IMG/VR virus record: IMGVR_UViG_3300045911_000150
Location: 1 to 57,615 of that record
Source of the DNA: a virus
Taxonomy: Duplodnaviria > Caudoviricetes
Direction: 5' to 3' (one strand)
Length of the DNA: 57,615 nucleotides
In this document: in pieces, positions 1-57,489 of the stretch
How positions within the stretch are numbered: the stretch's first letter is position 1
Layout: every line of letters starts with the position of its first letter
Made by a program: the position numbers and the translations under genes
Notes under the pieces: generated by a model
The model's input: only the letters and a program-made list of their open reading frames with translations
Database searches by the model: none
What the model was told of the DNA's origin: nothing

Positions 1-120
1 AGTTTGTGACACATGTCACAAACTCCGCTAGGTGTTGCGGGGTTCATGTTCGGTCCAGCGAGTTTGTGACACATGTCACAAACTCCGCTAGGTGTTGCGG
101 GGTTCATGTTCGGTCCAGCG
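1..120. repeat. 2 x 60-bp tandem repeat, each unit starting with the palindrome AGTTTGTGACACATGTCACAAACT
   Basis: 1-60 is identical to 61-120. Confidence 0.95.
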
Positions 121-43402: not shown

Positions 43403-43430
43403 GTGCTTCTCCGTGTGTGTGAGGTGGAGG

Positions 43431-43727
43431 TCAGGCTGTACGCCAGACCGCGATGCCTCGGACCGCTCCGGGCGTGCCAGCCGCGACGATCTTGGGCGGC
43501 CCCTTCGACGAGGTCAGCAGCGCCACATCGCGCGTCGAGAACTTGCGGCCGAGTTTCTTCGCCTCGACCGAGACATGTGTTGCAAGGCTCTTGCGACTGG
43601 GGCCGGAACCATGCGGGACGAAGAACATCTGCCCGACCTTCAGCTCGTCAAGCGGATACTTTCGATAAGCCCCGGCCTTCGACCTGGCCGGCGGAGGTTG
43701 GATAACGTTGTCGAAAACCTCGAACAT
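43431..43727 (-). CDS. Small putative DNA-binding protein
   Basis: AAGGAG RBS; KYPLDELKVGQMFFVP...F..R...VWR pattern. Confidence 0.7.
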   Translation of the reverse strand: MFEVFDNVIQPPPARSKAGAYRKYPLDELKVGQMFFVPHGSGPSRKSLATHVSVEAKKLGRKFSTRDVALLTSSKGPPKIVAAGTPGAVRGIAVWRTA

Positions 43728-43754
43728 GGTCGCTCCTTACGTGATGGCGTGCGC

Positions 43755-43783
43755 AAGATACCATACCACAAGGCGATGCACAA
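43755..43783 (-). promoter_or_regulatory. Putative promoter TTGTGC-N17-TATCTT, abutting a palindrome
   Basis: 17-bp spacing; upstream of the replication genes. Confidence 0.45.
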
Positions 43784-43785
43784 GG

Positions 43786-43805
43786 TTTGTGACATCCGTC
43801 ACAAA
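43786..43805. promoter_or_regulatory. Palindrome TTTGTGAC-ATCC-GTCACAAA
   Basis: Intergenic copy. Confidence 0.85.
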
Positions 43806-43840
43806 CCTCGGCGCCGCGACTACCGTCCCCTACTGTCCCG

Positions 43841-44338
43841 CTAAAATATCTGCAGCTCATGCGCGCGCTTGAGAAACAGCGTCTTCGCCCGCTCGGGACT
43901 CAGGAACTGCACGGTGCGCCCGGGCCGGCGTGGGATTTCGACACCCATGGTCTCGGCCAACTCGATGTCCAACATGGTCCTGTCGGCCTCGATCACCCTT
44001 CGCGGCGTCTCCACCGAGACCTTGAACCGCCGCCGGACCCCTGCCTCCACACGGGCCTCCATCGCCTGATAGTCCGGGAGCAGAGACTTGAGCGGCGAAC
44101 TGACATCGCCGATCAGTGCCTCGTGGGCATCGTGCAGCAGCGCGTCGGCCGCCAGCGTCGCCGGCACCAGATAGCTCGCGTGGACGCTGTGCTCGGCCAC
44201 CGAGTAGAACCGCCGCGTGTGGCCAGTGAACCGGCAGATGTGGGCCAGCCCATGGGCGACATCCAACAGGGTCACGCGGTCGAAGCTCGGGTCGGCAAGG
44301 TCGACAACCGTGCCCGAGAACAGCTTGATCTGAGTCAT
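43841..44338 (-). CDS. HD-domain phosphohydrolase (YfbR/YfdR-like deoxynucleotidase)
   Basis: AHGLA.ICRF.GH, YSVAEHSV, LLHDAHEA.IGD..SPLK. Confidence 0.85.
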   Translation of the reverse strand: MTQIKLFSGTVVDLADPSFDRVTLLDVAHGLAHICRFTGHTRRFYSVAEHSVHASYLVPATLAADALLHDAHEALIGDVSSPLKSLLPDYQAMEARVEAGVRRRFKVSVETPRRVIEADRTMLDIELAETMGVEIPRRPGRTVQFLSPERAKTLFLKRAHELQIF

Positions 44339-44550
44339 GTGGGGGTATCCTCTTGCGTGAAGGCGCGTTGGGTCGCGATGAAGGCGTTGGCGGCCATGAA
44401 GCTGGCCGCTGCGGCGCCCTGCCAGTGTCGTGCGATCGCTTCGGCCGGGTTCTCGCCGGGTGCAATGCGGTGTCCGGCCGCCTGGCCGAACACCGAGAGG
44501 AAACACGCTTCTGCGATGCGATTGCGCTGGGCAATCTCGTCAGGACTCAC
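44335..44550 (-). CDS. Hypothetical protein
   Basis: GTG start; overlaps both neighbours. Confidence 0.5.
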   Translation of the reverse strand: MSPDEIAQRNRIAEACFLSVFGQAAGHRIAPGENPAEAIARHWQGAAAASFMAANAFIATQRAFTQEDTPT

Positions 44551-44926
44551 GGCTTCGCTCCTGCGCACGAAGCGCCTTGACGGCGCCCATGTAGTCGCCA
44601 TCCGCCCACGCGACGACGGCGTCGGCGGCATGGGCGCAGGACGTGTCGGTCTCGCGGATCGCCTCTGCCAGCCGGGCGATGAACACATCCGCCGACATCG
44701 GCGCCGCCTTCGAGTCCCGTCGGAGCGTGTTCGCCAGCCACGGCGTGCGCTCGCGGTGCAGGACGTTGGGCACGAGCACGGCCAGCACGGCCATGCCCGG
44801 GGTCACCTGCACAGACCGGGCGACCTGGCTGGGGATGAACACCGCCTCGCGCGGCTCGGTCAGGGTGGAGCCGAACGCGCTGCCCGAAGGCAGCACGTTG
44901 GTGATGGTGATCGGAACCTCATACAT
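44540..44926 (-). CDS. Hypothetical protein (OB-like N-terminus)
   Basis: AGGAG RBS. Confidence 0.65.
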   Translation of the reverse strand: MYEVPITITNVLPSGSAFGSTLTEPREAVFIPSQVARSVQVTPGMAVLAVLVPNVLHRERTPWLANTLRRDSKAAPMSADVFIARLAEAIRETDTSCAHAADAVVAWADGDYMGAVKALRAQERSRES

Positions 44927-44942
44927 GATGGTATCTCCTGAC

Positions 44943-45806
44943 TCAGTCGGGGTTGCCGAAGGCGGCCATGATCCCGGCCATGTGGTCCATGATCGCGCGG
45001 GCCTCGTCGGCCGCCTTCTGGCGCGTGGCGTCGTTGGTCCTCAGCTCGGTGGCGTCGGGCCCGGTCAGCTTCGCCTCGATCATCTGCCGCAGACGCTCCA
45101 GGTTGGGGTCGTCGACGATGTTGAGTGCGGGGATGACCTGCACCAGCTCGCGCAGGTTCTCCACCAGCTCGACCCGGATCCCGGAGTTGGTCGTGGTGCG
45201 TTGCACGTAGTTGCTCAGCGCGTCCGCGAGGCGCTTCCACGTGGGCGCCATGGCGCGGTGCAGGCGCGCTTCCGCCGTTTTCTCCAGCCGCTCCACGACG
45301 CGCGGGTCGAGGTTCTCGGACACCTTCACCCGGAAGTCGCCGAGAGCGTTGACCGGCTCCATCTCCAGGTTGACATAGAACCGGCGCCGCACTTCCGCCG
45401 GCGACGGGTAGTCGTCGGCGTTGAACAGCGCGCCCATGCGGAACCGGGCGCGCTCGCGCTCGGCCGGGTAGATGTCGAACGCGAAGCGATCTGCGGCCTT
45501 GTCGTGCGCCGCAACCAGCGGCTCGTGTTCCTCAAGGAACTGCAGCAGCCCGCTGCGCTGGGTCAGCCGCGCGCCCGCGTCCGTCCACGGCAGGGTGCGC
45601 GCGTAGAGGTGCTGCCGCACCGCCGTGGCGGCCTGACCGATCTCGGCGAGCGCCGTCTCGGGCAGCAGGTGCTTGTTGACGCGGGCGGCGCCGATCTCGG
45701 CCTGCGCCTCGGTCGTGACCTTGCGGCTGGCGGCCTTGTCCAGCCGCTGTGCGGTCCACTTCCCGATATTCAGGGTCAGGACCATGCATTCTGTGACGAT
45801 GCTCAT
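44943..45806 (-). CDS. DUF3150-like protein
   Basis: L.IG.WTA...D, RVNK.LL, TLPW...GARL, FN.DDYP...EV..RF, LNI.DDP.L. Confidence 0.7.
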   Translation of the reverse strand: MSIVTECMVLTLNIGKWTAQRLDKAASRKVTTEAQAEIGAARVNKHLLPETALAEIGQAATAVRQHLYARTLPWTDAGARLTQRSGLLQFLEEHEPLVAAHDKAADRFAFDIYPAERERARFRMGALFNADDYPSPAEVRRRFYVNLEMEPVNALGDFRVKVSENLDPRVVERLEKTAEARLHRAMAPTWKRLADALSNYVQRTTTNSGIRVELVENLRELVQVIPALNIVDDPNLERLRQMIEAKLTGPDATELRTNDATRQKAADEARAIMDHMAGIMAAFGNPD

Positions 45807-45859
45807 GTGTGTGTATCCTCATGCTGTGGGGTTAGGGATATAGGTAGACTGTCGATCTG

Positions 45860-46594
45860 TCAAGGCTTGGTGCTCAGGTAGGGGTAGTCGGTGGGATCGA
45901 AGCCATAGTCAAAGCCGTGCAGGTGCATCTGCACACGCTCCACAAAGGTCAGGTCCACGAACGATTTGTGAACCAGCTTCTGGGCCGGGACCGCATCCGA
46001 AGGAACCTTCGTGCGCTTGCGAACGCCGTCGACGGTGTGGATCACCGTCGACCCATACTCCTCAACCACGTCGAGCATCAGCGCCCACGCCGCAGCCTGA
46101 TGCTTCAGCCCCTGCAGATGCGCCTTCTGCTCGGGCGACGGCACCCACGGCGGCGCGACGGTGATGGGGTCGCCGACGGGCTTGCATCCCGGACCGCCCC
46201 AGTAAACCGCGCACTGACCGTGGAACCGCTGCGGGATCGGTCGATCGGTCCAGTCCGGTGTCTTGCCGTAGTACGAGTGGTGCATCAGCTTGACGGCCAT
46301 GTTGAAGTCGTAGTCGATGACCAGGTGCTGCATACCCTTGCGGCTGAGCCACGCGGTCGGGATCGGCTTGTCGTCACCGGGGATGTACAGCTTCGGGCAA
46401 TCCGAGTCCGTCGTCGCCACGAGTTGTACGTTGCGCTTGCCGAACCGCCGCCGCTGATCGGGATCGGGCGCGGACCCCGACCAGATGCACTCGCCGGTCG
46501 AGAAGTCGGTGAAGTTGCGGTCGACCACGTGGAACGCGCGCCAGTGATCCCAGCGGTGCGCGGCCGGGTTCGCGTTGAAGTCAGGCATCTGCAT
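45860..46594 (-). CDS. Hypothetical protein
   Basis: AGGAG RBS behind the palindrome and leader. Confidence 0.7.
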   Translation of the reverse strand: MQMPDFNANPAAHRWDHWRAFHVVDRNFTDFSTGECIWSGSAPDPDQRRRFGKRNVQLVATTDSDCPKLYIPGDDKPIPTAWLSRKGMQHLVIDYDFNMAVKLMHHSYYGKTPDWTDRPIPQRFHGQCAVYWGGPGCKPVGDPITVAPPWVPSPEQKAHLQGLKHQAAAWALMLDVVEEYGSTVIHTVDGVRKRTKVPSDAVPAQKLVHKSFVDLTFVERVQMHLHGFDYGFDPTDYPYLSTKP

Positions 46595-46623
46595 GTGAAT
46601 AGCTCCTGTGTGTGAGGTTGAAG

Positions 46624-46643
46624 TTTGTGACACATGTCACAAA
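46624..46643. promoter_or_regulatory. Palindrome TTTGTGAC-ACAT-GTCACAAA
   Basis: Intergenic; 29 bp upstream of ATG 46594. Confidence 0.85.
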
Positions 46644-46650
46644 GTTGTGG

Positions 46651-47391
46651 TCAGTAGCCCCAAGTCCGACATGCGGCGCGGCAGGCGTAGACATCGCGCC
46701 AGTCGCAGAGGTATGCGTACTCGGCTACGGTCAGGCAGTGCGCACGCATGTGGTTGTGCTCATAGTGCGCCACGGCCTTGATACCGCCCAGCTTCAGCAG
46801 CTCGGGCCACCGCGCCGGGTCGGCGATGATCCCGGCGACATCTACCTGACCCAACCACTTCCGGTCGTAGACCGGGAAGCCCATCGCCTGAGCCGCGCGC
46901 AGCCACTGGCGCACCTTGTCGAGCCCGGTCTCGCGACGGAACGCATTCGCCGCCTTGCGGTTGACGCGCGGCCAGATCCACGGTCTGGCGCCGGTCACCC
47001 CGCTGCCACGGATGGTCAGCACGTCGCCGCCACAGGCGCGATAGAAGTTGCCCGCGACGCGAACATGGCCCACGCTATACCCGCTCAGCGACGCGGAGAT
47101 GTGGGACGGAGCGTGCGCGTGGATGAACTCCGCCGTGGTCATGCTGTCGTAGATGCGCAGCACGACCGACCCGTCGGAGCGGTAGGTCACCACATCGGTC
47201 TGATGCAGGCGGAACACGACCGAGCCGTCGGCCAGCTTGCGCACACCGGTGTTGCGGTACCGACGATTCCTGAGCGGGCGCTCGTCGCCGTCGGCGGTCT
47301 CGCCGCGCCACGGTTTCATGGAGTTGTAGTAGGCCAGCGCCTCGGCATGGCTGTCGAGGCGCCGGGAAGAAAAGCGCATACCGCCGAACAT
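46651..47391 (-). CDS. Hypothetical protein
   Basis: CACACACAAGGAG leader. Confidence 0.7.
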   Translation of the reverse strand: MFGGMRFSSRRLDSHAEALAYYNSMKPWRGETADGDERPLRNRRYRNTGVRKLADGSVVFRLHQTDVVTYRSDGSVVLRIYDSMTTAEFIHAHAPSHISASLSGYSVGHVRVAGNFYRACGGDVLTIRGSGVTGARPWIWPRVNRKAANAFRRETGLDKVRQWLRAAQAMGFPVYDRKWLGQVDVAGIIADPARWPELLKLGGIKAVAHYEHNHMRAHCLTVAEYAYLCDWRDVYACRAACRTWGY

Positions 47392-47414
47392 GTTGTAGTC
47401 TCCTTGTGTGTGAG

Positions 47415-47693
47415 TCAGCTGTGAGTGAGGGCGCAGCCCGCATAGGCTGCGTCCAGGGTGGGGTAGGTCACGAACGTCCCGGGGTAGGGACGCCGGAACT
47501 TGTCGAACAGGGCCGTGTACAGGTCGTAGGCGCGCACCTCATCGCCGCACAGCACGACCGCGAACTGGCACCCGTCGCCGAAGGCGTTGCGGCAAAAGAT
47601 CTCGGCAAAGGTGCTGGTGCCGATGTCGCCCGTCTCGCGCACCACGCCGCCCGAGCAGACGAAGGCGATCAGCTTGAGTCGATGCTCGGTCAT
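47415..47693 (-). CDS. Hypothetical protein
   Basis: ATGA overlap with the vWA gene. Confidence 0.55.
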   Translation of the reverse strand: MTEHRLKLIAFVCSGGVVRETGDIGTSTFAEIFCRNAFGDGCQFAVVLCGDEVRAYDLYTALFDKFRRPYPGTFVTYPTLDAAYAGCALTHS

Positions 47694-48871
47694 ATCCGCA
47701 CCACCTCTCCGAACGGCACCGCGACCTTGGTCGTGCAGACCGTGATCAGGGGGTAGTCCGGGGCAGAGCCAGGCCACGGAGTCTCGCCGTCCGTGATCAG
47801 CACGACCACGTCGGGGTTCAGCTCTGCGGCGTAGGCCAGCGGCACCCGCATGTCGGTGCCGCCGCCGCCCTTGGGCTCAAGCCGGATGGTGTCGCCGGAC
47901 TCGAACACCTGTTCGCCTGCGACGCGGGTATCGGCCCACAGGACGTGGATCGACCGGGGGTTCACTTCCTCGGCGATGTCCACGATCGAGCCGCCGATGC
48001 TCCGCAGATCGTCGCTGGTGATCGAGCCGGACGTGTCGCCGATCACCACCACCTTGCGGATCTGCGTGCTGTGGCGGCTGGGCAGGTAGACCTGCGAGAA
48101 GCGGCGGTTGCGGCGCGACCACGACTCGTTGGCCTTGACCACCGACCGCATCATGGGGCGCAGCAGCTCCTGCCACGGCACCGGGGGGTGCAGCAGGTTG
48201 TCGAGGGCCCGCAGCAGGCTGCCGGGCATGTTGCCCGCCATGCGGCCCATGTTGGTCGCCTGGGCGATGCGCTCGGTCAGGCGGCGCTCGATCTCGCGCA
48301 GCTTGGCCGGGTCGTGTGCAGCCGCCTCAGCCGCCGGGTCGGGCTTGCCGTCCTTGCCCAGCGAGCCGGGCGCCAGCAAGTCGCTGCCGGTGCCGGGGAT
48401 GCCATCGCCCTGCGTGTTGGGCGCCCCGCTGCCGGAGCCTTTGCCCGATCCGGGCCGCTGCGGGCGCTTGGGCTGCTTCTTCTCCAGCAGGGCGTAGATC
48501 TGCTCGGCGGCCATGTCCTTGTAGGTCTTGTCGACCAGCCCGCCCTCGGGCAGCTTGAACCCGCAGTCGATCAGGATCAGGTTGACGGCGTAGTCACAGG
48601 CCATGTTCCAGACCACAGGGTCTCGGCCCTGCCGCCGCAGCCCGTGCTTGAGCGCGATATGCAGCACCTCATGGGCCAGCACCCCGACGATCTCGTCGAG
48701 CGGCAGGCTGTCGAACCAGTCGGGGTCATAGGCGATGGACACCATGTCGGTGGCCGCCGTGCCGAGCCCCGGCACCCGGATCATGGGCGCGGAGACCAGC
48801 AGGGTGCCGAAGAAGGCTGACTTGAGCAGCAGCCTCGCTCGGGTTTTGAGGACTTTGTCAGAGTGCGGCAT
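47690..48871 (-). CDS. DUF2201-type metallopeptidase plus vWA domain protein
   Basis: TAATD, AHEVLHIAL.H..R, WN.ACDY..N, MIDAS DTSGSI, GGGGTD, ITDG. Confidence 0.9.
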   Translation of the reverse strand: MPHSDKVLKTRARLLLKSAFFGTLLVSAPMIRVPGLGTAATDMVSIAYDPDWFDSLPLDEIVGVLAHEVLHIALKHGLRRQGRDPVVWNMACDYAVNLILIDCGFKLPEGGLVDKTYKDMAAEQIYALLEKKQPKRPQRPGSGKGSGSGAPNTQGDGIPGTGSDLLAPGSLGKDGKPDPAAEAAAHDPAKLREIERRLTERIAQATNMGRMAGNMPGSLLRALDNLLHPPVPWQELLRPMMRSVVKANESWSRRNRRFSQVYLPSRHSTQIRKVVVIGDTSGSITSDDLRSIGGSIVDIAEEVNPRSIHVLWADTRVAGEQVFESGDTIRLEPKGGGGTDMRVPLAYAAELNPDVVVLITDGETPWPGSAPDYPLITVCTTKVAVPFGEVVRI

Positions 48872-48902
48872 GTGTGTAGAACTCCTTGAGGGTAGGGTGA
48901 GG

Positions 48903-48922
48903 TTTGTGACATATGTCACAAA
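48903..48922. promoter_or_regulatory. Palindrome TTTGTGAC-ATAT-GTCACAAA
   Basis: Between the AAA and vWA genes; arms extend to GAGG/CCTC. Confidence 0.85.
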
Positions 48923-48934
48923 CCTCGTGGGGTC

Positions 48935-49951
48935 TCACGGCTGGAACAGGGTGCGATACTGAGTCGCCAGCTTGAGGAACTCAGGCGCACCCAGCAGCGC
49001 GTTGTCGCGCTTGAGCGCCAGCTGCCACGCGAGGATCAGGAACTCCGGGTCCATGCGGGTCAGGTAGGTGTGGAGCGCCGAGACGTTCTTGAGGTCCATG
49101 GCGCCCGAGACCGACACGGCGGTCGCGTAGCGCATGGACAGCTCGTCGGGCAGCGGCGCCCCGGCCGGGTCGGCGAGAATCTTCGAGACCGGGATCACGT
49201 TCTTGATGTTCTCGATGAACCCCCAGAACTCCACCGCCGCGCCCTCGCCAACCAGGCCGGCCATGCCGATCCGCTTGGCTTCCTCGGGCGCCTTGGACGC
49301 ATAGACCCTAAAGGCGGCCATCCACGTGCGCGGGGTGGCGAACACCCGCTCGCCGCGCGCGGGGTCGAAGGTGGACACCAGCGGCTTGCGGAAGGACAGG
49401 AAGGCCACGCACTCGGCCGGGACCTTGCCCATCATGTAGGCCACTGCCACATCCGCCGACACGCCGAGCTCGACGTGGCAGAAGCGGTTGGCCAGCGGCA
49501 GGGGCATCTTGTTGGTGACGCCCTTGTCACCGTCGCGGTTGCCGGCGGCGATCTTGTAGACGTTCGGCTTGAGCCGATGCTCGCCGCAGGCGCCGTCGAG
49601 GATCAGCTGATAGGCCACGGCCATGACCGCCGGTTCGGCCGAGTTGATCTCGTCGAAAAACAGCACGATGGGCCGATTGTCAGGGAAGGCATCGTTGCCG
49701 ACGAAAGGCAACGTGCCGGGCATGTTCCAGACAGTCAGTCCCTTCTCCGGCACCGGGATGCCGCGCAGGTCCACCGAGTCGTACTGGCTGAGGCGGATGT
49801 CCACCAGCACGGCGCCCATGCGGTCGGCCAGCTGACGGACAGCATCCGACTTGCCGACGCCGGGCATACCCCAGATCATCACGGGCAGGTTGAGCGGAAT
49901 CGCCACGGTGTCGAAGAACTGGGCGAGGCTGACGTGATCGACGATATGCAT
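48935..49951 (-). CDS. MoxR/dynein-related AAA+ ATPase
   Basis: WGMPGVGKS, DLRGIP, LFFDEIN, AAGNR, LANRF, TPRTW. Confidence 0.9.
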   Translation of the reverse strand: MHIVDHVSLAQFFDTVAIPLNLPVMIWGMPGVGKSDAVRQLADRMGAVLVDIRLSQYDSVDLRGIPVPEKGLTVWNMPGTLPFVGNDAFPDNRPIVLFFDEINSAEPAVMAVAYQLILDGACGEHRLKPNVYKIAAGNRDGDKGVTNKMPLPLANRFCHVELGVSADVAVAYMMGKVPAECVAFLSFRKPLVSTFDPARGERVFATPRTWMAAFRVYASKAPEEAKRIGMAGLVGEGAAVEFWGFIENIKNVIPVSKILADPAGAPLPDELSMRYATAVSVSGAMDLKNVSALHTYLTRMDPEFLILAWQLALKRDNALLGAPEFLKLATQYRTLFQP

Positions 49952-49972
49952 GTTGCAGTCTCCTGTGAGTAG

Positions 49973-49992
49973 TTTGTGACACCCGTCACAAA
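49973..49992. promoter_or_regulatory. Palindrome TTTGTGAC-ACCC-GTCACAAA
   Basis: Between the promoter and the RBS of the AAA gene. Confidence 0.85.
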
Positions 49993-50033
49993 GTTGGGTT
50001 TGGTTGGTAGGCACAGCTTTCCGAACCAAGCAT

Positions 50034-50062
50034 ACACTATCATGGCTCGGACCTTATGTCAA
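50034..50062 (-). promoter_or_regulatory. Sigma70-type early promoter TTGACA-N17-TAGTGT
   Basis: Matches the promoters at 54566-54594 and 57435-57463. Confidence 0.75.
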
Positions 50063-50096
50063 GCATTATCTCACATGTTGAGATTTCTCCCTCGGG

Positions 50097-50387
50097 TCAT
50101 GCGTGCCTCCAGTCGTTGACGATCCGGGGCTCGCCCTCGAACACGAGGTGCAGATTCAGGCCCTCGGCGACGGCCGCGATCTGCGCGGCGACCGTGGGGT
50201 CGTCGGTGTCGGGCTCGCCCTCGATGTCGCGGTAACGCTCCAGCGCGACCAGCGCGAGGATGGTCTCCCGGTCGCAGGCCGGCACACCGTGGAGCGTGTA
50301 GACCAGCGGCCACGGCGAGCACGGCGGGAACGGGGTGGCGGACTCCGTGACGATGGCGGTCACGGTGCGCGCGGTGTGGCAGTTCAT
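50097..50387 (-). CDS. Hypothetical early protein
   Basis: CAACACATGGAGACCTGAC-ATG leader. Confidence 0.7.
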   Translation of the reverse strand: MNCHTARTVTAIVTESATPFPPCSPWPLVYTLHGVPACDRETILALVALERYRDIEGEPDTDDPTVAAQIAAVAEGLNLHLVFEGEPRIVNDWRHA

Positions 50388-50415
50388 GTCAGGTCTCCAT
50401 GTGTTGAGGTTTAGG

Positions 50416-50435
50416 TTTGTGACACACGTCACAAA
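50416..50435. promoter_or_regulatory. Palindrome TTTGTGAC-ACAC-GTCACAAA
   Basis: 1 bp after the upstream stop. Confidence 0.85.
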
Positions 50436-50436
50436 G

Positions 50437-50697
50437 TCAGGCTTCGGGCAGGGACTCCCACAGGTGGTAGGACTCGTCGCCGCCCGTGGGCAACCACTCA
50501 ACCTCGTAGGGCTCGATGCCCTCGTCTTCGCACTGGCAGGACCATTCGGACGCCCAGTACTCGATGTGCGTGTCGGACTCCTGGCGGCAGTAGTGGTTGC
50601 GCCAGACGCACGGGTTGCCGCTGGTGTCCACGTCGAGGTGGGCGAAGTCGGGGTGCCCGAGGCGCACGAGGTCCGCGCGGGTCTGGTAGGCGGTCAT
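50437..50697 (-). CDS. Hypothetical early protein (acidic, Cys/Trp-rich)
   Basis: ATGA-coupled; NHYC...WSCQCED. Confidence 0.65.
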   Translation of the reverse strand: MTAYQTRADLVRLGHPDFAHLDVDTSGNPCVWRNHYCRQESDTHIEYWASEWSCQCEDEGIEPYEVEWLPTGGDESYHLWESLPEA

Positions 50698-51224
50698 GCT
50701 TCAATCTCCAGATGTGCGACGGCCTCAGCCGCCATGGCGAACGGATCGTCGCCGACGAGCAGGAACCCGTCCGCGTCGTTGTCGGGATCCCAGAGAACCC
50801 ACCGGCCCTTGTGCTCGGCCGCACGGGCGATCAGGGCCTCGGCGTCGTTCAGCTCCTTGCGCGCCTCGGCCTCGAACGCCGGGCGCAGGTCGATGGCGTA
50901 GCCGTGCGCGGTCAGCGCCTGGGTCGCCGGGGACCACGGCCACAGGGTGCCGTCTGCCGGGGCCTCGGACCACATGCCGCCCTCGCTGGGCGACAGGGTG
51001 CAGTCGTTGGCCAGCCACTTGCCATTCTCGTCGGCCCACTTCACCACGGGCACGCCATCGCCGAAGGTCATCTGGCACCCGGTGCAGGTCAGCACGGTGC
51101 CCCGCGGCACGCGCATCGCCCAGCCCTGCTGGGCGTAGGGCCCGGTCGGCTTCATGCCGCTCAGCTGGACATCGTCGGCCACCACGCGCCACTTCTGGCC
51201 GGGCTTGAAGTCTCTCTGGATCAT
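50694..51224 (-). CDS. Hypothetical early protein
   Basis: Conserved leader and RBS. Confidence 0.7.
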   Translation of the reverse strand: MIQRDFKPGQKWRVVADDVQLSGMKPTGPYAQQGWAMRVPRGTVLTCTGCQMTFGDGVPVVKWADENGKWLANDCTLSPSEGGMWSEAPADGTLWPWSPATQALTAHGYAIDLRPAFEAEARKELNDAEALIARAAEHKGRWVLWDPDNDADGFLLVGDDPFAMAAEAVAHLEIEA

Positions 51225-51246
51225 GTTAGGTCTCCATCTGTTGAAG

Positions 51247-51266
51247 TTTGTGACACATGTCACAAA
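51247..51266. promoter_or_regulatory. Palindrome TTTGTGAC-ACAT-GTCACAAA
   Basis: 1 bp after the upstream stop. Confidence 0.85.
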
Positions 51267-51267
51267 G

Positions 51268-51684
51268 TCAGGTCAGCATCCGCACGGCGGTGTTTGCCCG
51301 GTTGTACATGTCGTCGAGCCAGGCGTTCCAGCGCAGCGCGGCGGCGAGGCGCGCAGAGTCGGTCGCCTCGTCGAGCGTGAGCAGGATCGACCCGTCGTAC
51401 GCTTCGTGAAACGTGGCGACAGCAGGCGCGATGGCCGGGTCGAACAGCATGACGGAGGCGTCGTACTCGTCGCCCCGCCCGGAGCGCCACGCGAAGGGCG
51501 TCCCGGTGCCGATCAGGTGGCTCTCCACCGCCTCGGGCAGCGAGCCGTAGTTGACTTCTTCCCAGCCGTACTGGATCGGCGAGTCAACGTCGGTCGGCTC
51601 GCCCAGCGCGCTCGTGAGGCGCTCCATCAGCTCCGGCGTCGGCGGGCTGGCGAGGATCAAGATGCAGTAGGTGCGATCACTCAT
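51268..51684 (-). CDS. Hypothetical early protein
   Basis: CATGGAGACCTGAC-ATG leader without a palindrome. Confidence 0.7.
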   Translation of the reverse strand: MSDRTYCILILASPPTPELMERLTSALGEPTDVDSPIQYGWEEVNYGSLPEAVESHLIGTGTPFAWRSGRGDEYDASVMLFDPAIAPAVATFHEAYDGSILLTLDEATDSARLAAALRWNAWLDDMYNRANTAVRMLT

Positions 51685-51753
51685 GTCAGGTCTCCATGCG
51701 GTTGGTGCAAGCGCGGGCCGTGGGGTAGACCACGCCGCGTACCTCGATCTGCA

Positions 51754-52098
51754 TCACCAGTCGTAGAGCGGCAGCTGGTCCAGCGTGTCGCCGTCCCTGT
51801 CGAGGCACAGCCAGACGCAGCCCAGTTTGCGCGCACAGGTCATGCAGTCCGCGAGGTCGGGCGGCAGGGTGTCGCTGCACTCGGCCCACGCCTGCGCGTC
51901 GCCCGGCACGTGGATCCACCAGCCGTAGTCGCCCTTCGGATACACGGTCAGGCGCAGGCGGGGCTGTCGTGCCCACGGGTCGGTCGCGCGGGTCATGCGC
52001 CGGCAGTGGCTGTCCAGCCGCTGCGCGGTGCTTTCGCGGATGTGTCCGGTGCTGATGGTGAGCATGAGCTCGACGCCGACGGGATGTCGGTAGTCCAT
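51754..52098 (-). CDS. DUF5983-like protein
   Basis: LTISTGHI, YGWWIHV, LP.DL.....AR..GC.W...DRDG.....LPLYDW. Confidence 0.75.
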   Translation of the reverse strand: MDYRHPVGVELMLTISTGHIRESTAQRLDSHCRRMTRATDPWARQPRLRLTVYPKGDYGWWIHVPGDAQAWAECSDTLPPDLADCMTCARKLGCVWLCLDRDGDTLDQLPLYDW

Positions 52099-52126
52099 GT
52101 CAGTTCTCCATGTGTTGAGGTTTAAG

Positions 52127-52146
52127 TTTGTGACATGTGTCACAAA
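52127..52146. promoter_or_regulatory. Palindrome TTTGTGAC-ATGT-GTCACAAA
   Basis: Contains the stop codon of 52140-52544. Confidence 0.85.
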
Positions 52147-52544
52147 GTCAGTGCAGCCGCTGCGCGCAGCCGGGTGAACCAGTCGGGGTGCAGGCTGATG
52201 GAGTAGTCCCACTCCACGCAGGTTGCGAGGAACAGGGGGCAGTACTCGAAATCGAAGGCCACGGGATCGTGCTCGGGGCTCAGCGCGGCCCAGCCGATGT
52301 CGCAGGGCAGCACTATCTGCGACACGGCGTGGCGCAGTCCGATCGAGCCGTACCTGACCCGGACAGCGGCGTAGGTCTGCGCCACCGCGCTTTCGCCGGG
52401 GTCGATGAAGGCTTCCCAGAGGCACATCGCCGTTTCCAACTCGCTCTTGCGCGAGCGCGCCTCGGACTGGCGCAAATAGTCCTCGACACGCGCGATCTCG
52501 GTCAGGGTCATCTGTGCAGCCCAGTTGGGGGGAATGTGCTTCAT
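52140..52544 (-). CDS. Hypothetical early protein
   Basis: GGAGG RBS; ATGA overlap; FDFEYCP. Confidence 0.7.
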   Translation of the reverse strand: MKHIPPNWAAQMTLTEIARVEDYLRQSEARSRKSELETAMCLWEAFIDPGESAVAQTYAAVRVRYGSIGLRHAVSQIVLPCDIGWAALSPEHDPVAFDFEYCPLFLATCVEWDYSISLHPDWFTRLRAAAALTL

Positions 52545-52762
52545 CGCTTCTTCCTCCGGGCGAAGATCTCGATGCCGAGGTCGAGGTTGATGGCGAACAG
52601 GGTGTAGTCGCGCGGCCAGCGCGTCTTGCCCCGACGGATGGCATAGATCGCCGACGTGGACACGCCGATGCGCTTGCTCAGGCGGTAGACATCCTCGCCG
52701 TGGAGCGCATCGCGCACCACGGCCATCATGTCGGCACCGCTGGCGACGGGGATGTCGGTCAC
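52541..52762 (-). CDS. XRE/Cro-like helix-turn-helix protein
   Basis: LSKRIGVSTSAIYAIRRGKTRWPR; AAGGAG RBS; GTG start. Confidence 0.7.
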   Translation of the reverse strand: MTDIPVASGADMMAVVRDALHGEDVYRLSKRIGVSTSAIYAIRRGKTRWPRDYTLFAINLDLGIEIFARRKKR

Positions 52763-52766
52763 GGGC

Positions 52767-52913
52767 CTACTCCTTCGTGAAGCCGTGGAACCAGCCGGGC
52801 CCGCGGGTGTCGGGGCGGCTGCACCACGCCTGCGCCTCGGCCAGGGTCAGGCCGCGCCGGATGACGCGCCGGCGCCCGCTGCGCGAGAAGCGGATGATCA
52901 TGTAGGTGTCCAT
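52767..52913 (-). CDS. Small conserved phage protein, 48 aa
   Basis: Conserved leader; [14 protein letters not shown]...WF.G. Confidence 0.7.
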
Positions 52914-52941
52914 GTCAGGTCTCCATGTGCTGAGGGTGAAG

Positions 52942-52961
52942 TTTGTGACACATGTCACAAA
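52942..52961. promoter_or_regulatory. Palindrome TTTGTGAC-ACAT-GTCACAAA
   Basis: Contains the stop codon of 52955-53179. Confidence 0.85.
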
Positions 52962-53179
52962 CTCTGGTCGTGCAGGGCGGCGTCGGCCCGGCGAAACTGG
53001 CGGCTGTCGTGCGGGTTGCCGCTGTTGCACATCGGGCACGAGCATTTCCGCAGGTTGTCGGCCCAGCGCAGGACCTTGGTCATGTCGCGCCAGCCGAGGT
53101 GGCGGGTCACGACGGGCAGAGCGCGGGCGATGGCCTTCTGGCGCTGAGCGCGGCGCCAGGCGCGGTCACGGGTGGTCAT
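52955..53179 (-). CDS. Small Arg-rich protein with a CSCPMC..GNP motif
   Basis: GGAG RBS. Confidence 0.6.
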
Positions 53180-53180
53180 G

Positions 53181-53669
53181 TCAGAAAACTCCGATGGAAC
53201 GAAAGCTGGTGGTCTTGTCGGCGGCCACGAGGACGTGGTCGTGCAGGGTCACGTCGATGGTCTTGAGCGCGTCGGCGATCCGGCGGGTCATGTGGATGTC
53301 GGCCTCGCTGGGGCTCACGCTCCCGCTGGGGTGATTGTGGGTGATGATGACGGCCGAGGCGTCGAGCGCCAGCGCCCGCGCCACGATCTGCCGGGGGTAG
53401 ACGGGAACGTGGTCCACGCTGCCCCGCGCCACCTCCTCGTCGGCGATCAGGGCGTTGCGCTTGTCGAGGTAGAGGACGCGGAAGCACTCCACCCGCTGCG
53501 GCCCCAGCGTGACCTTGAGGTAGTCGAGCAGCGCGCCCCACGACTGGATGACGGGCCGGCCGGCGATCATGCGGGCGAGGATGGCCCGCGCCTCGCGCAA
53601 GGTGCGCTGCTGGTCAGGGGTGAGCATGTGCGCCCAGTCCGGCTCCCGGATGTCAGCGATCTTTTCCAT
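53181..53669 (-). CDS. radC: RadC-like JAB-domain protein
   Basis: E.FRVLYLD.RN.LI, V.VYPRQI, HNHPSG...PS.AD...T, LHDHVLV. Confidence 0.92.
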   Translation of the reverse strand: MEKIADIREPDWAHMLTPDQQRTLREARAILARMIAGRPVIQSWGALLDYLKVTLGPQRVECFRVLYLDKRNALIADEEVARGSVDHVPVYPRQIVARALALDASAVIITHNHPSGSVSPSEADIHMTRRIADALKTIDVTLHDHVLVAADKTTSFRSIGVF

Positions 53670-53696
53670 GTGTCGTCTCCTTGTGTGTGAGTCAAG

Positions 53697-53716
53697 TTTG
53701 TGACATGTGTCACAAA
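53697..53716. promoter_or_regulatory. Palindrome TTTGTGAC-ATGT-GTCACAAA
   Basis: Contains the stop codon of 53710-54003. Confidence 0.85.
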
Positions 53717-54003
53717 GTCTGTTTGCGGCACCAGTCCAGCAGGGCGGGCGGCAGGTGTTTCGCGGCGCAGGCCAGCGCCCCCTCGGGGTCGCTCCGCGCG
53801 CACCGGTCCAGCAGGTCGGGCGGCAGCCGGTGCGCGGCGTGGACCAGCGCCAGCGGCGGATGCTCTCGCGCGCACCAGTCCAGCAGGTCGGGCGGCAGCC
53901 GGTCCGCGGCGTGGACCAGCGCGCGCCACGACGCAGGCTGCTCGTCGTCCGGCAGGCCAAGCAGCGCCACCAGCGCCGCCACCCGGTCCCGCGCGTCGGT
54001 CAC
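53710..54003 (-). CDS. Small helical-repeat protein (3 x about 24 aa, AL..AA..LPP.LLD.C)
   Basis: GTGA overlap with the upstream gene; internal repeats. Confidence 0.6.
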   Translation of the reverse strand: MTDARDRVAALVALLGLPDDEQPASWRALVHAADRLPPDLLDWCAREHPPLALVHAAHRLPPDLLDRCARSDPEGALACAAKHLPPALLDWCRKQTL

Positions 54004-54455
54004 AGCGCCACCCACCGCTGGCCGGTGCGCGGATCGCGGATGGTGACGGTGCGCGTGGGGCCGTACACGTCCTCGATCATGGCCGGGCGGTAGCGGCCCG
54101 AGGCCACGGCCCGGTCGAAGGCATCCAGCACGGACTGGGGAGTCTGCCCCACGTGGGCGCGCGGCCGGGCGACGATGCCCGCCGGCTTGCGCTTGCTGGC
54201 CGGGTCCGGGATCGCGTCGCTGCACTCGGGCAGGGCGGGCGCGCGGCCCACCGACACGGCGCAGGGACTCAGATCGGCCGGCCTGACCACGGGGGCGCTC
54301 TTGCGGCGGCGCGGCTTTGCCGGCGCGGCAGGGTTCAGCCCGAGGCTCATCAGGAACCGCGCGTGGGCGGCATGGGCGGCATCGCGGCTGGCGCGCTCGC
54401 CAGCAGCCAGAGGCGGAGCGGAGCGACCGGAGCGGTCGGCGACATAGATGATCAT
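54000..54455 (-). CDS. Hypothetical early protein
   Basis: CACACACAAGGATACCTGCC-ATG leader; first gene after the promoter. Confidence 0.6.
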   Translation of the reverse strand: MIIYVADRSGRSAPPLAAGERASRDAAHAAHARFLMSLGLNPAAPAKPRRRKSAPVVRPADLSPCAVSVGRAPALPECSDAIPDPASKRKPAGIVARPRAHVGQTPQSVLDAFDRAVASGRYRPAMIEDVYGPTRTVTIRDPRTGQRWVAL

Positions 54456-54486
54456 GGCAGGTATCCTTGTGTGTGAGGTTGAGGAG

Positions 54487-54506
54487 TTTGTGACATGTGT
54501 CACAAA
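54487..54506. promoter_or_regulatory. Palindrome TTTGTGAC-ATGT-GTCACAAA
   Basis: Between the promoter and the RBS. Confidence 0.85.
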
Positions 54507-54565
54507 GTCCGGGCAGGCACTTCGGGCAGTCACTTCGGGCAGGCACTTTTTCGATTATGTGTATA

Positions 54566-54594
54566 AGACTACCACATATTGGGGCTTATGTCAA
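54566..54594 (-). promoter_or_regulatory. Sigma70-type early promoter TTGACA-N17-TAGTCT
   Basis: Perfect -35; AT-rich upstream. Confidence 0.75.
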
Positions 54595-54641
54595 GCATAA
54601 AATATCCCGGAGCGCCTCCATGCGGGGCACTCCGGGCAGGA

Positions 54642-54740
54642 TCGGGCGGCAGAGTCGGGCGGCAGGGTCGGGCGGCAGGGTCGGGCGGCAGGGTCGGGCG
54701 GCAGGGTCGGGCGGCAGGGTCGGACGGCAGGGTCGGGCGG
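54642..54740. repeat. 13-bp tandem repeat (GGGCGGCAGGGTC), about 7.5 copies
   Basis: Seen directly; intergenic. Confidence 0.9.
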
Positions 54741-54771
54741 GACTACTGTGGCGCCGCCTGCGGGGCGCCTG

Positions 54772-55350: not shown

Positions 55351-55842
55351 CGGAGATTCTCCTGGGTTGGGGCTGGTGGAAGGCATGTAGCAGACGGTTT
55401 TGCCCATTTCAAGGGGGTTAATAGAGGCTTTTGCCCATTGGGCGGGCTAATGGGTTGTTTTCGACCAAGGTGAGTCAGTCAGGGGGCGGTTAAGTAGCTG
55501 ATGCAGCACGAAGGTGAGTCCACTGGTCAAAATAGACACGGTTTTAGAGCGATAGTAAGTGTGTCTGGCATAGGATTCGGGGGGATTCGGGAGTTCGCCA
55601 CATGTTGGCAACTAAAAATGGCATTCCGTACCGTGACTACAGCAAAAAAACCTGTCTATCCAGTCTATTTTATATATCTATTGACTTATAAACAAACAAA
55701 AACAACAACATGGAGATCGCCCGACTGAAGGCCTCCGGCGACCACTAGACTCAGTGGACCCCCCCAATGGACGCATTGGACCCCCCCAATAGGTCGCGTT
55801 TTCTCTATTCGCCTACCCCGAGGTGGTCAGAATCGGCCCAAG

Positions 55843-56180
55843 TTTGTGACATCTATCACAAACTTGTTGGAGACTTGCCCTATTGGGGACCTACACTAGG
55901 TTCACCGGTTGGAAACTTTCTCTATTCGCGCCTACACTAGGTTCACCGGTTGGAAACTTCCCCTATTCACGCACTACACTAGGTTCACATGTTGGAAACT
56001 TTCCCTATTCACGCACTACACTAGGTTTGCATGTTGGAAACTCTCTCTATTCGCTCACTACACTAGGTTTACATGTTGGAAACTTTTCCTATTCGTGCGC
56101 GAGTTTGTGACATGTGTCACAAACTTGTTGGAGACTTCACCTATTCGTGCGCGGCACTAGAGTCACTTGTTGGAGATTCT
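55843..56180. repeat. About 42-bp-period iteron-like array with two embedded palindromes (55843-55862 variant, 56104-56123)
   Basis: CTACACTAGGTT...GTTGGAAACT....CTATTC units start at 55891, 55932, 55974, 56016 and 56058. Confidence 0.9.
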
Positions 56181-56400
56181 TGCCTGGCGACGGCACTACC
56201 GTCCCACTACTGTCCCGTATCGGCTGCTGGCGCAGCCTGCATTGGGGTCGGCTGCTGGTGCAGCCTGCGTGGTGAATAGAGAAATGGAGTCCGCGTTGGG
56301 GGCGGCGGGCTGCGCCGCCTGCGTGGTGAATAGGATCGTCGCGGCGAATAGGCCCGTTGTGGCGAATAGGGCAATAGGGTCTGGGCGAGTCCTCAGCAAG

Positions 56401-56420
56401 TTTGTGACATGTGTCACAAA
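56401..56420. promoter_or_regulatory. Palindrome TTTGTGAC-ATGT-GTCACAAA
   Basis: Just downstream (- strand) of the double terminator. Confidence 0.85.
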
Positions 56421-56444
56421 CTCGGGCCCTGTGCGGCAGGCATG

Positions 56445-56530
56445 AAAAAACCCCCCGGCTTGCGCCGGGGGGTTGGGGGCCGGGGGCTGGGCGGCAGGCA
56501 TGAAAAAACCCCCCGGCTTGCGCCGGGGGG
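56445..56530 (-). terminator. Two identical intrinsic terminators in tandem
   Basis: CCCCCCGGC-GCAA-GCCGGGGGG-TTTTTT at 56445-56472 and 56503-56530. Confidence 0.88.
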
Positions 56531-56555
56531 TTGGGGGCCGTTCGGGCCGGGGCGG

Positions 56556-57365
56556 TTACTTCGAGGTCTCCGCCTTGACGGCCGCGATGAAGGCCTCATA
56601 GGCGCTGCGCAGCGGGCCGGGCAGGCTCTTGCGATTTTTCTTCATGTTGGCGACCATGAACGCGGCTTCGTTCTGCGCGTGGGCGTACCATTCGGCCTTG
56701 CTCACCAAGATCGGCAGGGTGAGGCCCTGCGCGGCCGGCACCTCGGCCGGCACCTCGGCCGGCGCCTCGGCCGGCGCCTCGGGCTCCGACTCGGTCTGCG
56801 TCATGCGCGGCTTGCGCGAGCTGATCTTGACGGCGGTCATGTCGGCCGGAGGCGGGTTCGTGGCCAGCGGCACGAAGAACGCATCCGAATTGATCGCCGT
56901 GGTGTCGGCCGGGGTGGGCGACTCGGTGTCGGCCGGGGTGGGCGACTCGGTGTCGGCCGGGGTGGGCGACTCGGTGTCGGTCGCGGCCGACGGCCGCGCG
57001 CCGCCCTGCGGCGCGTCGCTCTGAAGATCCAGCTTGGCCAGCAGGCGCGAACGGGCCTGCCGCGCGGCATCGTAGGCGGTTTTCCAGCCCTGCGGTCGAT
57101 CCTTGTCGGCGAAATCGAACCACGCCAGCGCCTTGGCCATGGATTTGACGTTGCAGGGCATCCCCAACGCGTGGGCGATGTAGCCCGCATCGAACGTACG
57201 CCGCATCTGAGTGGACACGACGCCAGCGACACCGGCCGAGTTGCGGAACGCCTTTTCGACGGCCGCGCGCAGCGCCGCATCCTTGGCGCTGGCCATGTGG
57301 CCCGCATCGAAGAGTCCGCGATCCGCCTCGGACGGGTTGAACGGGGTCGGCTTGGGTTTGGTCAT
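56556..57365 (-). CDS. Hypothetical early protein with (ADTESPTP)n and (APAE)n linkers; paralog of 930-1577
   Basis: AGGAG RBS; own promoter and double terminator. Confidence 0.8.
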   Translation of the reverse strand: MTKPKPTPFNPSEADRGLFDAGHMASAKDAALRAAVEKAFRNSAGVAGVVSTQMRRTFDAGYIAHALGMPCNVKSMAKALAWFDFADKDRPQGWKTAYDAARQARSRLLAKLDLQSDAPQGGARPSAATDTESPTPADTESPTPADTESPTPADTTAINSDAFFVPLATNPPPADMTAVKISSRKPRMTQTESEPEAPAEAPAEVPAEVPAAQGLTLPILVSKAEWYAHAQNEAAFMVANMKKNRKSLPGPLRSAYEAFIAAVKAETSK

Positions 57366-57434: not shown

Positions 57435-57463
57435 AAACTAGCCCATGTTCGGGTCTATGTCAA
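57435..57463 (-). promoter_or_regulatory. Sigma70-type early promoter TTGACA-N17-TAGTTT
   Basis: Perfect -35; immediately downstream of the palindrome ladder. Confidence 0.75.
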
Positions 57464-57489
57464 GCACTATTTTACATGTTGGCGGTTCT

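Follow-up and report, generated by a model that had tools for sequence, protein, structure and literature searches.

What is the role of a short palindrome that recurs at the heads of the early genes of a phage? The question is raised by IMG/VR record IMGVR_UViG_3300045911_000150, the complete record (57,615 nt) of a virus of the class Caudoviricetes. The whole of this record is called here the window, or G000 where the phage is set beside its relatives. Its early region contains many copies of the palindrome TTTGTGAC-N4-GTCACAAA, for which a preliminary description, made from the letters of the window, had offered an operator or roadblock system, mRNA-processing hairpins, and recombination junctions. 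The explanation that we prefer, and hold tentatively, is that a dimeric protein, most likely a product of the phage itself, recognises the palindrome in duplex DNA as a sequence-specific, dyad-symmetric site.

The palindrome and its positions

With up to two mismatches allowed, the pattern has 17 matches in the window and none in 100 dinucleotide-preserving shuffles. Positions 1-126 of the window are identical to the last 126 bases, so the matches at 57492 and 57552 duplicate those at 3 and 63, and 15 distinct palindromes remain. Fourteen of them are exact, and the single copy with one mismatch is at 55843. The unique genome has 15 occurrences of the 8-mer TTTGTGAC, where 0.29 would be expected per strand. 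The feature is real and far beyond chance. No copies lie in 83-43785, even with spacers of 3-6 nt and two core mismatches; this relaxed scan produced only unrelated weak matches, at 11977, 33246, 48581, 49514 and 49964. Outside the palindromes there is just one 7-mer half-site, at 33245. Degenerate copies are absent from the relaxed scan of the window, and each junction holds a perfect element or none. The earlier count of 15 copies, their absence from 2.3-43.7 kb (also under relaxed spacing) and the combination of invariant arms with a variable four-base centre are all borne out.

The centre is variable, yet in the listed sites of the window it is always purine-N-N-pyrimidine, and the centres ACAT and ATGT are about equally frequent on the sense strand. 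Three of the eight pairs of the stem are G-C, and the sense strand has no T-run after the stem. The palindromes form AT-rich islands in genomes whose GC content is 50-67% in the family and 66.6% in the window. The distinct copies are as follows; the strand is not specified.

3..22, palindrome, identical to the copy at 57492-57511, in a tandem repeat of 60 bp that lies upstream of promoter P1 (P1-P3 are described below)
63..82, palindrome, identical to the copy at 57552-57571, within unit 2 of the same 60-bp tandem repeat
43786..43805, palindrome, 2 nt ahead of a promoter-like TTGTGC-17-TATCTT; the DUF7303 gene (ATG 43727) and then the DNA polymerase gene follow
46624..46643, palindrome, between stop 46651 and ATG 46594
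48903..48922, palindrome, separating the MoxR-like ATPase gene from the VWA/metallopeptidase gene (ATG 48871)
49973..49992, palindrome, downstream of P3 in the 5' leader, with the ATPase ATG 49951 following after 21 nt
50416..50435, palindrome, 1 nt past a TGA stop codon, with ATG 50387 located 28 nt downstream
51247..51266, palindrome, 1 nt past a TGA stop codon, with ATG 51224 located 22 nt downstream
52127..52146, palindrome, left arm (TTTG-TGA-C) including the TGA of the upstream gene; the next ATG is 52098
52942..52961, palindrome, left arm including the TGA of the upstream gene; the next ATG is 52913
53697..53716, palindrome, left arm including the upstream TGA; the next ATG, 53669, starts the RadC-like JAB gene
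54487..54506, palindrome, downstream of P2 in the 5' leader; the ATG is 54455
55843..55862, palindrome, non-genic, in a repeat-rich non-coding region; one mismatch, T.G on the minus strand
56104..56123, palindrome, non-genic, within an array of repeats of about 44 bp
56401..56420, palindrome, non-genic, just downstream of twin terminators

By codon-position GC, all genes at 31.5-57.4 kb are on the minus strand. All genes of the early region are thus read from this strand, and the position "upstream of an ATG", claimed earlier, is valid only on the reverse complement. Read in this way, nine copies had been placed 21-31 bp before an ATG, and the measured distances are indeed 31, 27, 28, 28, 22, 28, 21, 31 and 29 nt; at 43786 the distance is 58 nt. 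Ten palindromes share one order of signals: stop codon, palindrome, G-poor CA-rich leader of 15-25 nt, GGAG-like Shine-Dalgarno box, ATG. The upstream stop codon is located 1-12 nt before the palindrome or within its left arm as TTTG-TGA-C (53697, 52942 and 52127). The similarity extends into the leaders: between 50385-50440 and 52096-52151 five of 56 bases are different, as had been claimed. By hand count, about 12 of the about 22 junctions from the first early gene to the polymerase hold a palindrome. Since the CA-rich leader is present also at junctions that have no palindrome, it is a general feature of translation starts rather than a part of the element.

Palindromes of related phages

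Relatives were collected by a scan of viral contigs for the exact pattern and then by searches with alignments of the ATPase and the polymerase. About 36 uncultured members of the family were recovered. The palindrome of the window is found in G001 (9 copies), G002 (11 copies, eight of which have a single outer T/C change) and G004 (3 copies), the records of which have 55-58% GC, against 66.6% in the window. G001 and G002 have the same gene order as the window phage and 30-74% protein identity to it; G004 is more distant. In G003, whose polymerase is 85% identical (22 kb of this genome, including contig L118, were compared), six early junctions carry TTTGTGAC-ATGAT-GTCACAAA, and one N4 copy is located at the polymerase-proximal promoter. 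Further relatives have palindromes of their own:

L134, TTTGCGAC-N4-GTCGCAAA, 5 copies
L128, ATTTACC-N1-GGTAAAT, 8-9 copies
L133, ATTAACC-N2-GGTTAAT, 9 copies
L131, ATTAATC-N2-GATTAAT, 4 copies
L146, GTTACA-N3-TGTAAC, 7-9 copies
L149, TGATAC-N5-GTATCA, 5-7 copies
G007, GTCACGACA-N3-TGTCGTGAC, 8-11 copies
G006 (contigs L109-L112; capsid 75% identical), imperfect TTTGTNAA-N5-TTNACAAA, 14 sites against 0 for the reversed control

At least ten (about 12) different lineage-specific palindromes occupy equivalent junctions. In 12 genomes or loci, 74 of 105 copies have a Shine-Dalgarno box and a start codon within 60 nt downstream. A short palindrome lies at most 95 nt upstream of the orthologous ATPase gene in 13 of 16 loci, two of which are identical; three of these palindromes were found by eye. 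Palindromes at gene heads are a family trait, some relatives having the same sequence and others a different one. Sites, placement, symmetry and lineage specificity are all direct observations. Among 22 loci for which 5 kb or more of upstream sequence was available, a script found no clear multi-copy palindrome in eight, and the trait may not be universal in the family.

The element can be packed tightly against the translation signals. At six sites of G006 the stop codon lies in the left arm, the Shine-Dalgarno box in the centre, and the ATG 0-1 nt past the right arm; in G001 the gap between palindrome and ATG is just 15-16 nt at 48862, 50199 and 54704. G006 also has two intragenic copies: one encodes FVNEIYK within the SNF2 helicase, the other FVNLVNK within the primase-helicase. 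Both use AT-rich codons, whereas the helicase orthologues in G000, G001 and G002 are GC-rich and have no palindrome there. All six early copies of G003 have the centre ATGAT and all 11 copies of G002 the centre ACGT, and this uniformity suggests concerted evolution.

Transcription signals around the palindromes

The early region contains three near-identical candidate promoters and one pair of terminators:

57435..57466, minus strand, P1, sigma-70-type promoter, TGCTTGACATA-N14-TAGTTT with the -10 box at 57440, a consensus match only, with an inferred start site
54566..54597, minus strand, P2, near-identical promoter, TGCTTGACATA-N14-TAGTCT with the -10 box at 54571
50034..50065, minus strand, P3, near-identical promoter, TGCTTGACATA-N14-TAGTGT with the -10 box at 50039
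56449..56532, minus strand, twin intrinsic terminators, identical, with an 11-bp stem (nine G-C pairs) followed by a T-run

The -35 boxes of P1-P3 are perfect, and the -10 boxes agree with the consensus at only three of six positions, hence they are missed by a standard promoter scan. The palindromes at 54487 and 49973 follow P2 and P3 by 35-53 nt, and two copies are located upstream of P1. The palindrome at 43786 adjoins a weaker promoter-like match, which precedes the DUF7303 and polymerase genes, and G003 has the same layout of palindrome, promoter-like match, DUF7303 and polymerase. Besides the twin hairpins, the terminator scan yielded only a 5-bp hairpin at 54620-54608, which is not a copy of the palindrome. 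The palindromes are not host promoters, since the three strong sigma-70-type promoters lie upstream of palindromes. They are not terminators either, and are located within or between transcription units.

Duplex DNA site or RNA hairpin

The palindromes of the family differ widely in their capacity to fold as RNA. The predicted hairpin energies at 37 C are -12.1 kcal/mol in G007, -8.3 in G000 (-3.8 at 65 C), -2.2 in L133, -0.5 in L128 and 0.0 in L131, and they range from -0.2 to -1.5 kcal/mol in G006, where none of the 12 early-region copies has fully complementary arms. The 40 non-complementary arm positions comprise, on the sense strand, 11 G.T, 16 A.C and 13 other combinations, and thus show no preference for wobble pairs. 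The mismatched copies of G002 contain five C.A and three G.U. Palindromes occur also away from translation starts: upstream of P1, after the terminators, and in non-coding repeats. Across lineages, dyad symmetry and AT-richness are retained and foldability is not. The layout in G006 gives the impression that a constrained site has taken up translation signals at those of its positions that are free to vary. Because symmetry is kept without hairpin stability, mismatches have no G-U bias, and G006 carries intragenic copies, recognition of duplex DNA by a symmetric protein is favoured.

Binding of a protein, its identity and its effect on transcription are the conjectural parts of this reading, which may be outlined as follows. 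A dimeric, probably phage-specified protein would bind the palindrome on double-stranded DNA. The sites would head the early translation units inside transcripts started at a few strong host-type promoters, and the bound protein would serve as a roadblock or a global regulator, shutting off or timing early expression. Site and factor would co-evolve, so that each lineage would have its own palindrome. Finally, the palindrome and the leader, being the only repeats of about 50 bp in the region, would allow homologous exchange, with gain, loss and reordering of cassettes as a by-product.

Another possibility, which accounts for part of the data and which we still consider unlikely, is that an 8-bp hairpin in the polycistronic early mRNA before each start protects or processes the message or insulates the start. 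It agrees with the location of the palindromes downstream of sigma-70-type promoters or between cistrons of the same strand, and with the moderate stability of the hairpin in the window. The free variation of the centre and its extension from N4 to N5 at six sites of G003 also fit a loop, and the lone mismatch in the window is G.U on the sense strand. Stop codons lie within the left arm and, in G006, the Shine-Dalgarno box lies within the centre. However, the equivalents in L128, L131, L133 and G006 have practically no predicted stability (0 to -2.2 kcal/mol), and A.C mismatches are more numerous on the sense strand than G.T. The 16 arm bases are identical between phages with 40-60% protein identity, although structure alone needs no such conservation. 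The intragenic copies in G006 are not beside any start codon, and the CA-rich leader is found also where the palindrome is missing. Rfam has no match above the threshold, as its only two matches are sub-threshold and both lie at the terminators. Of the mRNA hairpins proposed earlier, the location within transcription units and the lengthened centre in G003 thus speak for an RNA, and unfoldable elements in several relatives and the absence of a G-U bias speak against it.

Search for a binding factor

A number of observations weigh against a dimeric protein bound to DNA. The centre grows from four to five bases at all six early sites of G003, which is trivial for a loop and awkward for a rigid dimer. 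Relative to the promoters, with start sites estimated, the site centres are at +44.5, +62.5, -47.5, -73.5 and -133.5, and fit no operator geometry. All copies may be transcribed, which leaves room for a role of the RNA. No cognate protein was found: Pfam searches with 150 early open reading frames from six genomes gave scattered helix-turn-helix matches that are not shared across genomes. The ATPase, VWA and DUF3150 proteins, which all phages with TGTGAC-type palindromes have in common, are no more alike within this group than between lineages whose palindromes differ. A confident model of the DUF7303 protein (pLDDT 84) has no match in PDB at E <= 0.001 and no DNA-binding fold. A DNA-binding fold is likewise missing from the confident model of the g1 protein, introduced below, for which VIA-align gave only matches to helical hairpins with Z <= 5.7. 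Of the three roles suggested at the outset, the operator or roadblock is the best fit to the retained symmetry and the intragenic copies in G006, with the missing binding protein on the other side.

Two individual candidates were examined. The helix-turn-helix gene at 52541-52762 encodes a 73-aa protein with one weak HTH_3 match (E 0.0013). It has no tblastn match (E <= 1e-5 or 1e-4) in G001, G002, G004, G006 and G007 and no blastp match in the L118 part of G003; nevertheless, G001-G004 carry the same arms. The DUF3150 protein (44943-45806) seemed tied to the TGTGAC type, but 21 loci with a variety of palindrome types have it.

A further candidate is the first gene of the early region:

56556..57365, minus strand, g1, the first gene after P1, encoding an arginine-rich, all-helical protein of an unnamed family

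The g1 protein evolves fast and has 137 representative homologues in the 50% library. Its model consists of a five-helix N-terminal domain, a disordered linker rich in proline, alanine and glutamate with tandem repeats, and a C-terminal helical hairpin. There is no match to it in Pfam, PHROGs or PDB sequences, nor by Foldseek. In G000, G001, G002 and G006 palindromes lie on both sides of the gene and a terminator comes after it. These circumstances (the first place after P1, the bracketing palindromes, the abundance of arginine and the fast evolution) make the g1 protein a candidate factor on circumstantial grounds.

A factor specified by the phage is favoured over one of the host because of the altered spacing in G003 (TGTGA-N7-TCACA), the presence of a G003-like contig in run X5, and the unrelated palindromes within the family. 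The full scheme, in which the early programme would be run by a co-evolving pair of operator and phage factor, the latter perhaps g1, with the specificity re-set at least ten times, is in our opinion rather unlikely.

A possible site for a host protein

The consensus of the CRP site is TGTGA-N6-TCACA. One could suppose that a host protein of the CRP/FNR family binds the sites of the type found in the window, either coupling early expression to the physiology of the host or being titrated by them. Indeed, 14 of the 15 sites contain exact TGTGA-N6-TCACA and one contains it with one mismatch. That phages of 53-67% GC and 40-60% protein identity agree in all 16 arm bases would suit a conserved host factor, the 5-N4-5 geometry, as judged by eye, is kept in L131, L133 and L134, and no phage-encoded binder emerged from the searches. 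Core and dyad symmetry are also those of a CRP/FNR operator.

However, spacing and position do not behave like those of such sites. G003, the closest relative, has TGTGA-N7-TCACA at six of seven sites, and a G003-like contig is present in run X5, which is assigned to the same sample as the G000-containing runs X1 and X3. Spacing of the N7 type occurs at 14 sites of G006, so the fixed 6-bp spacing of CRP is not kept, and other relatives have spacings N1-N3 and unrelated half-sites. The estimated centres are not at -41.5, -61.5 or -71.5, hence neither class I nor class II, and most copies have no promoter nearby. Pfam detects no cNMP-binding or CRP helix-turn-helix domain in the 150 early open reading frames. 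In a scan of species genomes with the 22-mer, 48 mostly single loci were found and no genome had more than two exact sites, which gives neither enrichment nor a clue to the host. The CRP-type core recognised in the preliminary description is therefore exact as a sequence, whereas its positions and the conservation of its spacing are unlike those of CRP sites, and we regard this explanation as improbable.

Cassettes and breakpoints

The palindrome and leader could also be a selfish or neutral repeat that is homogenised by recombination and shuffles cassettes in the manner of PeSL elements, with no binding factor at all. Blocks that are additional or rearranged in G000 relative to G003 have breakpoints at 53728, 53185, 50710, 50436, 52911 and 50401. 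Four of the six are at most 31 nt from a palindrome, and two are at gene junctions that have none. A contig from run X5 joins 50374 to 52964, palindrome to palindrome, which fits the arrangement in G003. The cassette order of G000 differs from that of G002 and G006: homologues of the genes 46651 and 45860 are located upstream of the ATPase gene in G002 and G006, and after the VWA gene in G000 and G003. The uniform centres of the six early copies in G003 and the 11 copies in G002 likewise fit homogenisation.

On the other hand, two breakpoints are at palindrome-free junctions, and the translocated 46651/45860 block is not flanked by palindromes in G000. A palindrome is present at about 42% of early junctions anyway, hence four of six is not clearly an enrichment. 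Decay would be expected of neutral repeats, but degenerate copies are lacking, and phages that have diverged deeply share identical arms. An explanation by recombination only is thus highly doubtful. The breakpoints follow gene boundaries, often but not exclusively at palindromes; the recombination junctions suggested earlier stand for four breakpoints and fail for the other two and for the unflanked block. Recombination is likely a by-product and not the primary function. As had been stated, no integrase is recognised in the window.

Two segments of the window are missing from the compared 22 kb of G003: the RadC-like JAB gene (53181-53669) and a 2.5-kb block at 50401-52911. The latter comprises three cassettes, including the gene of the 73-aa helix-turn-helix protein.

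Finally, it is very unlikely that the palindrome is a promoter, perhaps an extruded hairpin, of an unrecognised phage or virion RNA polymerase, each cassette having its own short-leader transcript: the lineage-specific block of 20-23 bp, conserved right before the leaders of many early genes, does resemble the promoters of the T7 group, and the order of the virion module (terminase, portal, capsid, giant protein) and the ATPase/VWA pair resemble those of N4-like phages, but Pfam and PHROGs detect no RNA polymerase among the 51 proteins of the window, the C-terminal 1000 aa of the giant protein are polyvalent or DarB-like and unlike an annotated putative virion polymerase, the region is already served by three strong sigma-70-type promoters, and the ATG lies 0-1 nt after the palindrome in G006, with the Shine-Dalgarno box inside, and 15-16 nt after it at three sites of G001, therefore the element must be transcribed.

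The phage and other features of its genome

The plus strand encodes the terminase, the portal, the capsid and a 2395-aa virion protein. On the minus strand are the genes of a DUF927 primase-helicase, an SNF2 helicase, an exonuclease, two methyltransferases and a family A polymerase (assignments by PHROGs and Pfam). The early region encodes small proteins, mostly with no assigned function, as well as a MoxR-type ATPase, a VWA/metallopeptidase, a RadC-like JAB protein and an HNH endonuclease. The ATPase is similar to those of N4-like phages. Among isolates, Pseudomonas phage Rollin comes nearest (capsid 46%, primase 30%), and the polymerase is less than 30% identical to that of any isolate. No repeated palindrome was found in 31 kb of Rollin, and megablast of 43000-57615 against phage records gave no match. 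The sequence is present in runs X1-X4, labelled as hot-spring and microbial-mat metagenomes, from which the record may originate.

In the 2395-aa protein (10931-18118) only the last 1000 aa or so are conserved in relatives, the N-terminal 1350 aa being poorly conserved; the conserved part is of the DarB-like/PLxRFG/LPD39 polyvalent type, and the Atlas assigns LPD39 in 28% of one cluster. Residues from about 580 to 1000 form a low-complexity repeat of the QAEAQAR type. Phmmer against PDB sequences gave no match. The protein was also considered as a virion RNA polymerase, but BLASTP against the putative polymerase of StenR_269 produced only low-complexity matches. The 246-aa protein at 46651-47391 was rejected as a small polymerase subunit of the N4 type, its alignment having, by eye, no polymerase-like motifs.

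A non-coding region of 1 kb is rich in repeats:

55360..56400, non-coding region, strand not specified, with five or six repeats of about 44 bp and an AT-rich stretch at about 55640-55710, as judged by eye

The repeats of about 44 bp read GAATAGRGAAAGTTTCCAAC...CCTAGTGTAG, and CCTATTC repeats are present too; two units have the palindrome instead of the right half. The region may be a replication origin. A free-standing HNH/NUMOD4 endonuclease gene (54772-55350) is located between these repeats and P2, and about seven tandem copies of the 13-bp CCCGACCCTGCCG lie just upstream of P2, at 54640-54745. The twin terminators are part of a 58-bp direct repeat directly after g1. The terminal 126 bp comprise 2.1 units of the 60-bp tandem repeat, with one palindrome per unit, and the overlap of the ends (1-126 and 57490-57615) is possibly an assembly overlap. 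In run X1, a 66-nt contig of the 60-bp repeat has a depth of 240 against about 100 for its neighbours, therefore more repeat units are possible than were assembled.

Some relatives have peculiarities of their own. The polymerase match in G003 (L118, 9204-12014) spans 2811 bp instead of about 1900, and the VWA gene of G006 (50142-52184) encodes 680 aa and overlaps, in another frame, an open reading frame of 226 aa (51011-51691) with a weak LAGLIDADG_3 match. Inserted elements, an intein or a homing endonuclease, are possible in the G003 polymerase gene or the G006 VWA gene. G006 is rated complete, yet tblastn finds in it no homologue of the large terminase of G000 or of the 137-aa protein upstream of it; the packaging module of G006 appears to have been replaced.

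Comparison with known systems

The closest parallels are the ESAS repeats of mycobacteriophages, the stoperators of phage L5 and the PeSL elements, each of which differs in at least one defining feature. Searches of the literature on intergenic palindromes in phage early genes and on PLxRFG gave nothing about this family; the SrpA palindrome described there is a different motif.

According to Pope et al. 2011 (PMC3203893) and the Yasnaya_Polyana paper (PMC12699233), ESAS elements of Cluster K mycobacteriophages are inverted repeats located just upstream of the starts of a subset of genes, and their function is stated to be unknown. Their positions are conserved gene by gene among relatives, some bases differing by subcluster. 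They have imperfect 17-bp arms and spacers of 4-13 bp and usually are linked to a 13-bp SAS, GGGATAGGAGCCC (PMC3203893, PMC12699233). As in ESAS, the inverted repeats of the present family stand directly before start codons (10 of 15 copies in the window, 74 of 105 across 12 genomes), and the right repeat of ESAS may abut the start codon, as it does in G006. Unlike the ESAS described there, the arms are of 6-9 bp and exact (8 bp in the window) and the spacers of 0-5 bp (4 in the window). The whole sequence is replaced between lineages, and neither the phage family nor the host is related. No SAS is present at the palindromes of the window, only the general CA-rich leader.

Stoperators of L5 are numerous copies of a short site in intergenic gaps within transcription units, where the bound phage repressor blocks elongation. 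They are asymmetric, 13 bp long and in one orientation, and belong to a temperate phage with a known repressor. The palindromes resemble them in having many copies in short intergenic gaps within operons, at about 12 of about 22 early junctions. Unlike stoperators, they are symmetric and confined to the early region. No repressor or integrase is recognised, apart from the weak HTH_3 match of the 73-aa protein.

Early promoters of phage N4 are short inverted repeats (hairpins) upstream of early genes, used by the virion RNA polymerase. The window has similar repeats before its early genes and an N4-like capsid module; unlike N4, it has no virion RNA polymerase that could be found, it has host-type promoters, and in relatives the element overlaps the Shine-Dalgarno box and the ATG.

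The PeSL elements of T4-type phages consist of a sigma-70 promoter and a terminator stem-loop, and differences between close relatives are bounded by them (Arbiol et al. 2010, PMC2839356). Like these, the palindrome is a repeated motif between small variable early genes; of the breakpoints between G000 and G003, four of six are within 31 nt of a palindrome and two are at junctions that have none. However, just 3 of the 15 copies come shortly after a sigma-70 promoter, those of P2 and P3 being 35-53 nt downstream, and the palindrome has no T-run, is not a terminator, and is followed by the ribosome-binding site. The likeness to SAS/ESAS and PeSL noted in the preliminary description thus extends to the placement of ESAS and in part to the breakpoints of PeSL, and not to the arms of ESAS and the linked SAS or to the promoter and terminator of PeSL.

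Inverted repeats linked to translation starts have been described in a few phage groups; what they do is still open according to the 2025 Cluster K paper (PMC12699233). New here, as far as the searches of the literature and of phage records go, is the same design in an unrelated family of uncultured phages that has no close relative among isolates. The palindromes look most like docking sites for a regulatory protein. The at least ten palindromes at equivalent junctions constitute a natural series of variants that makes the function testable. Short repeats in front of genes can influence the mosaic structure of phage early regions. Should a factor exist, the family would be a natural library of orthogonal pairs of sites and regulators. 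A co-evolving pair, if true, would be a new kind of early-gene control and would explain the ESAS-like repeats of other phages.

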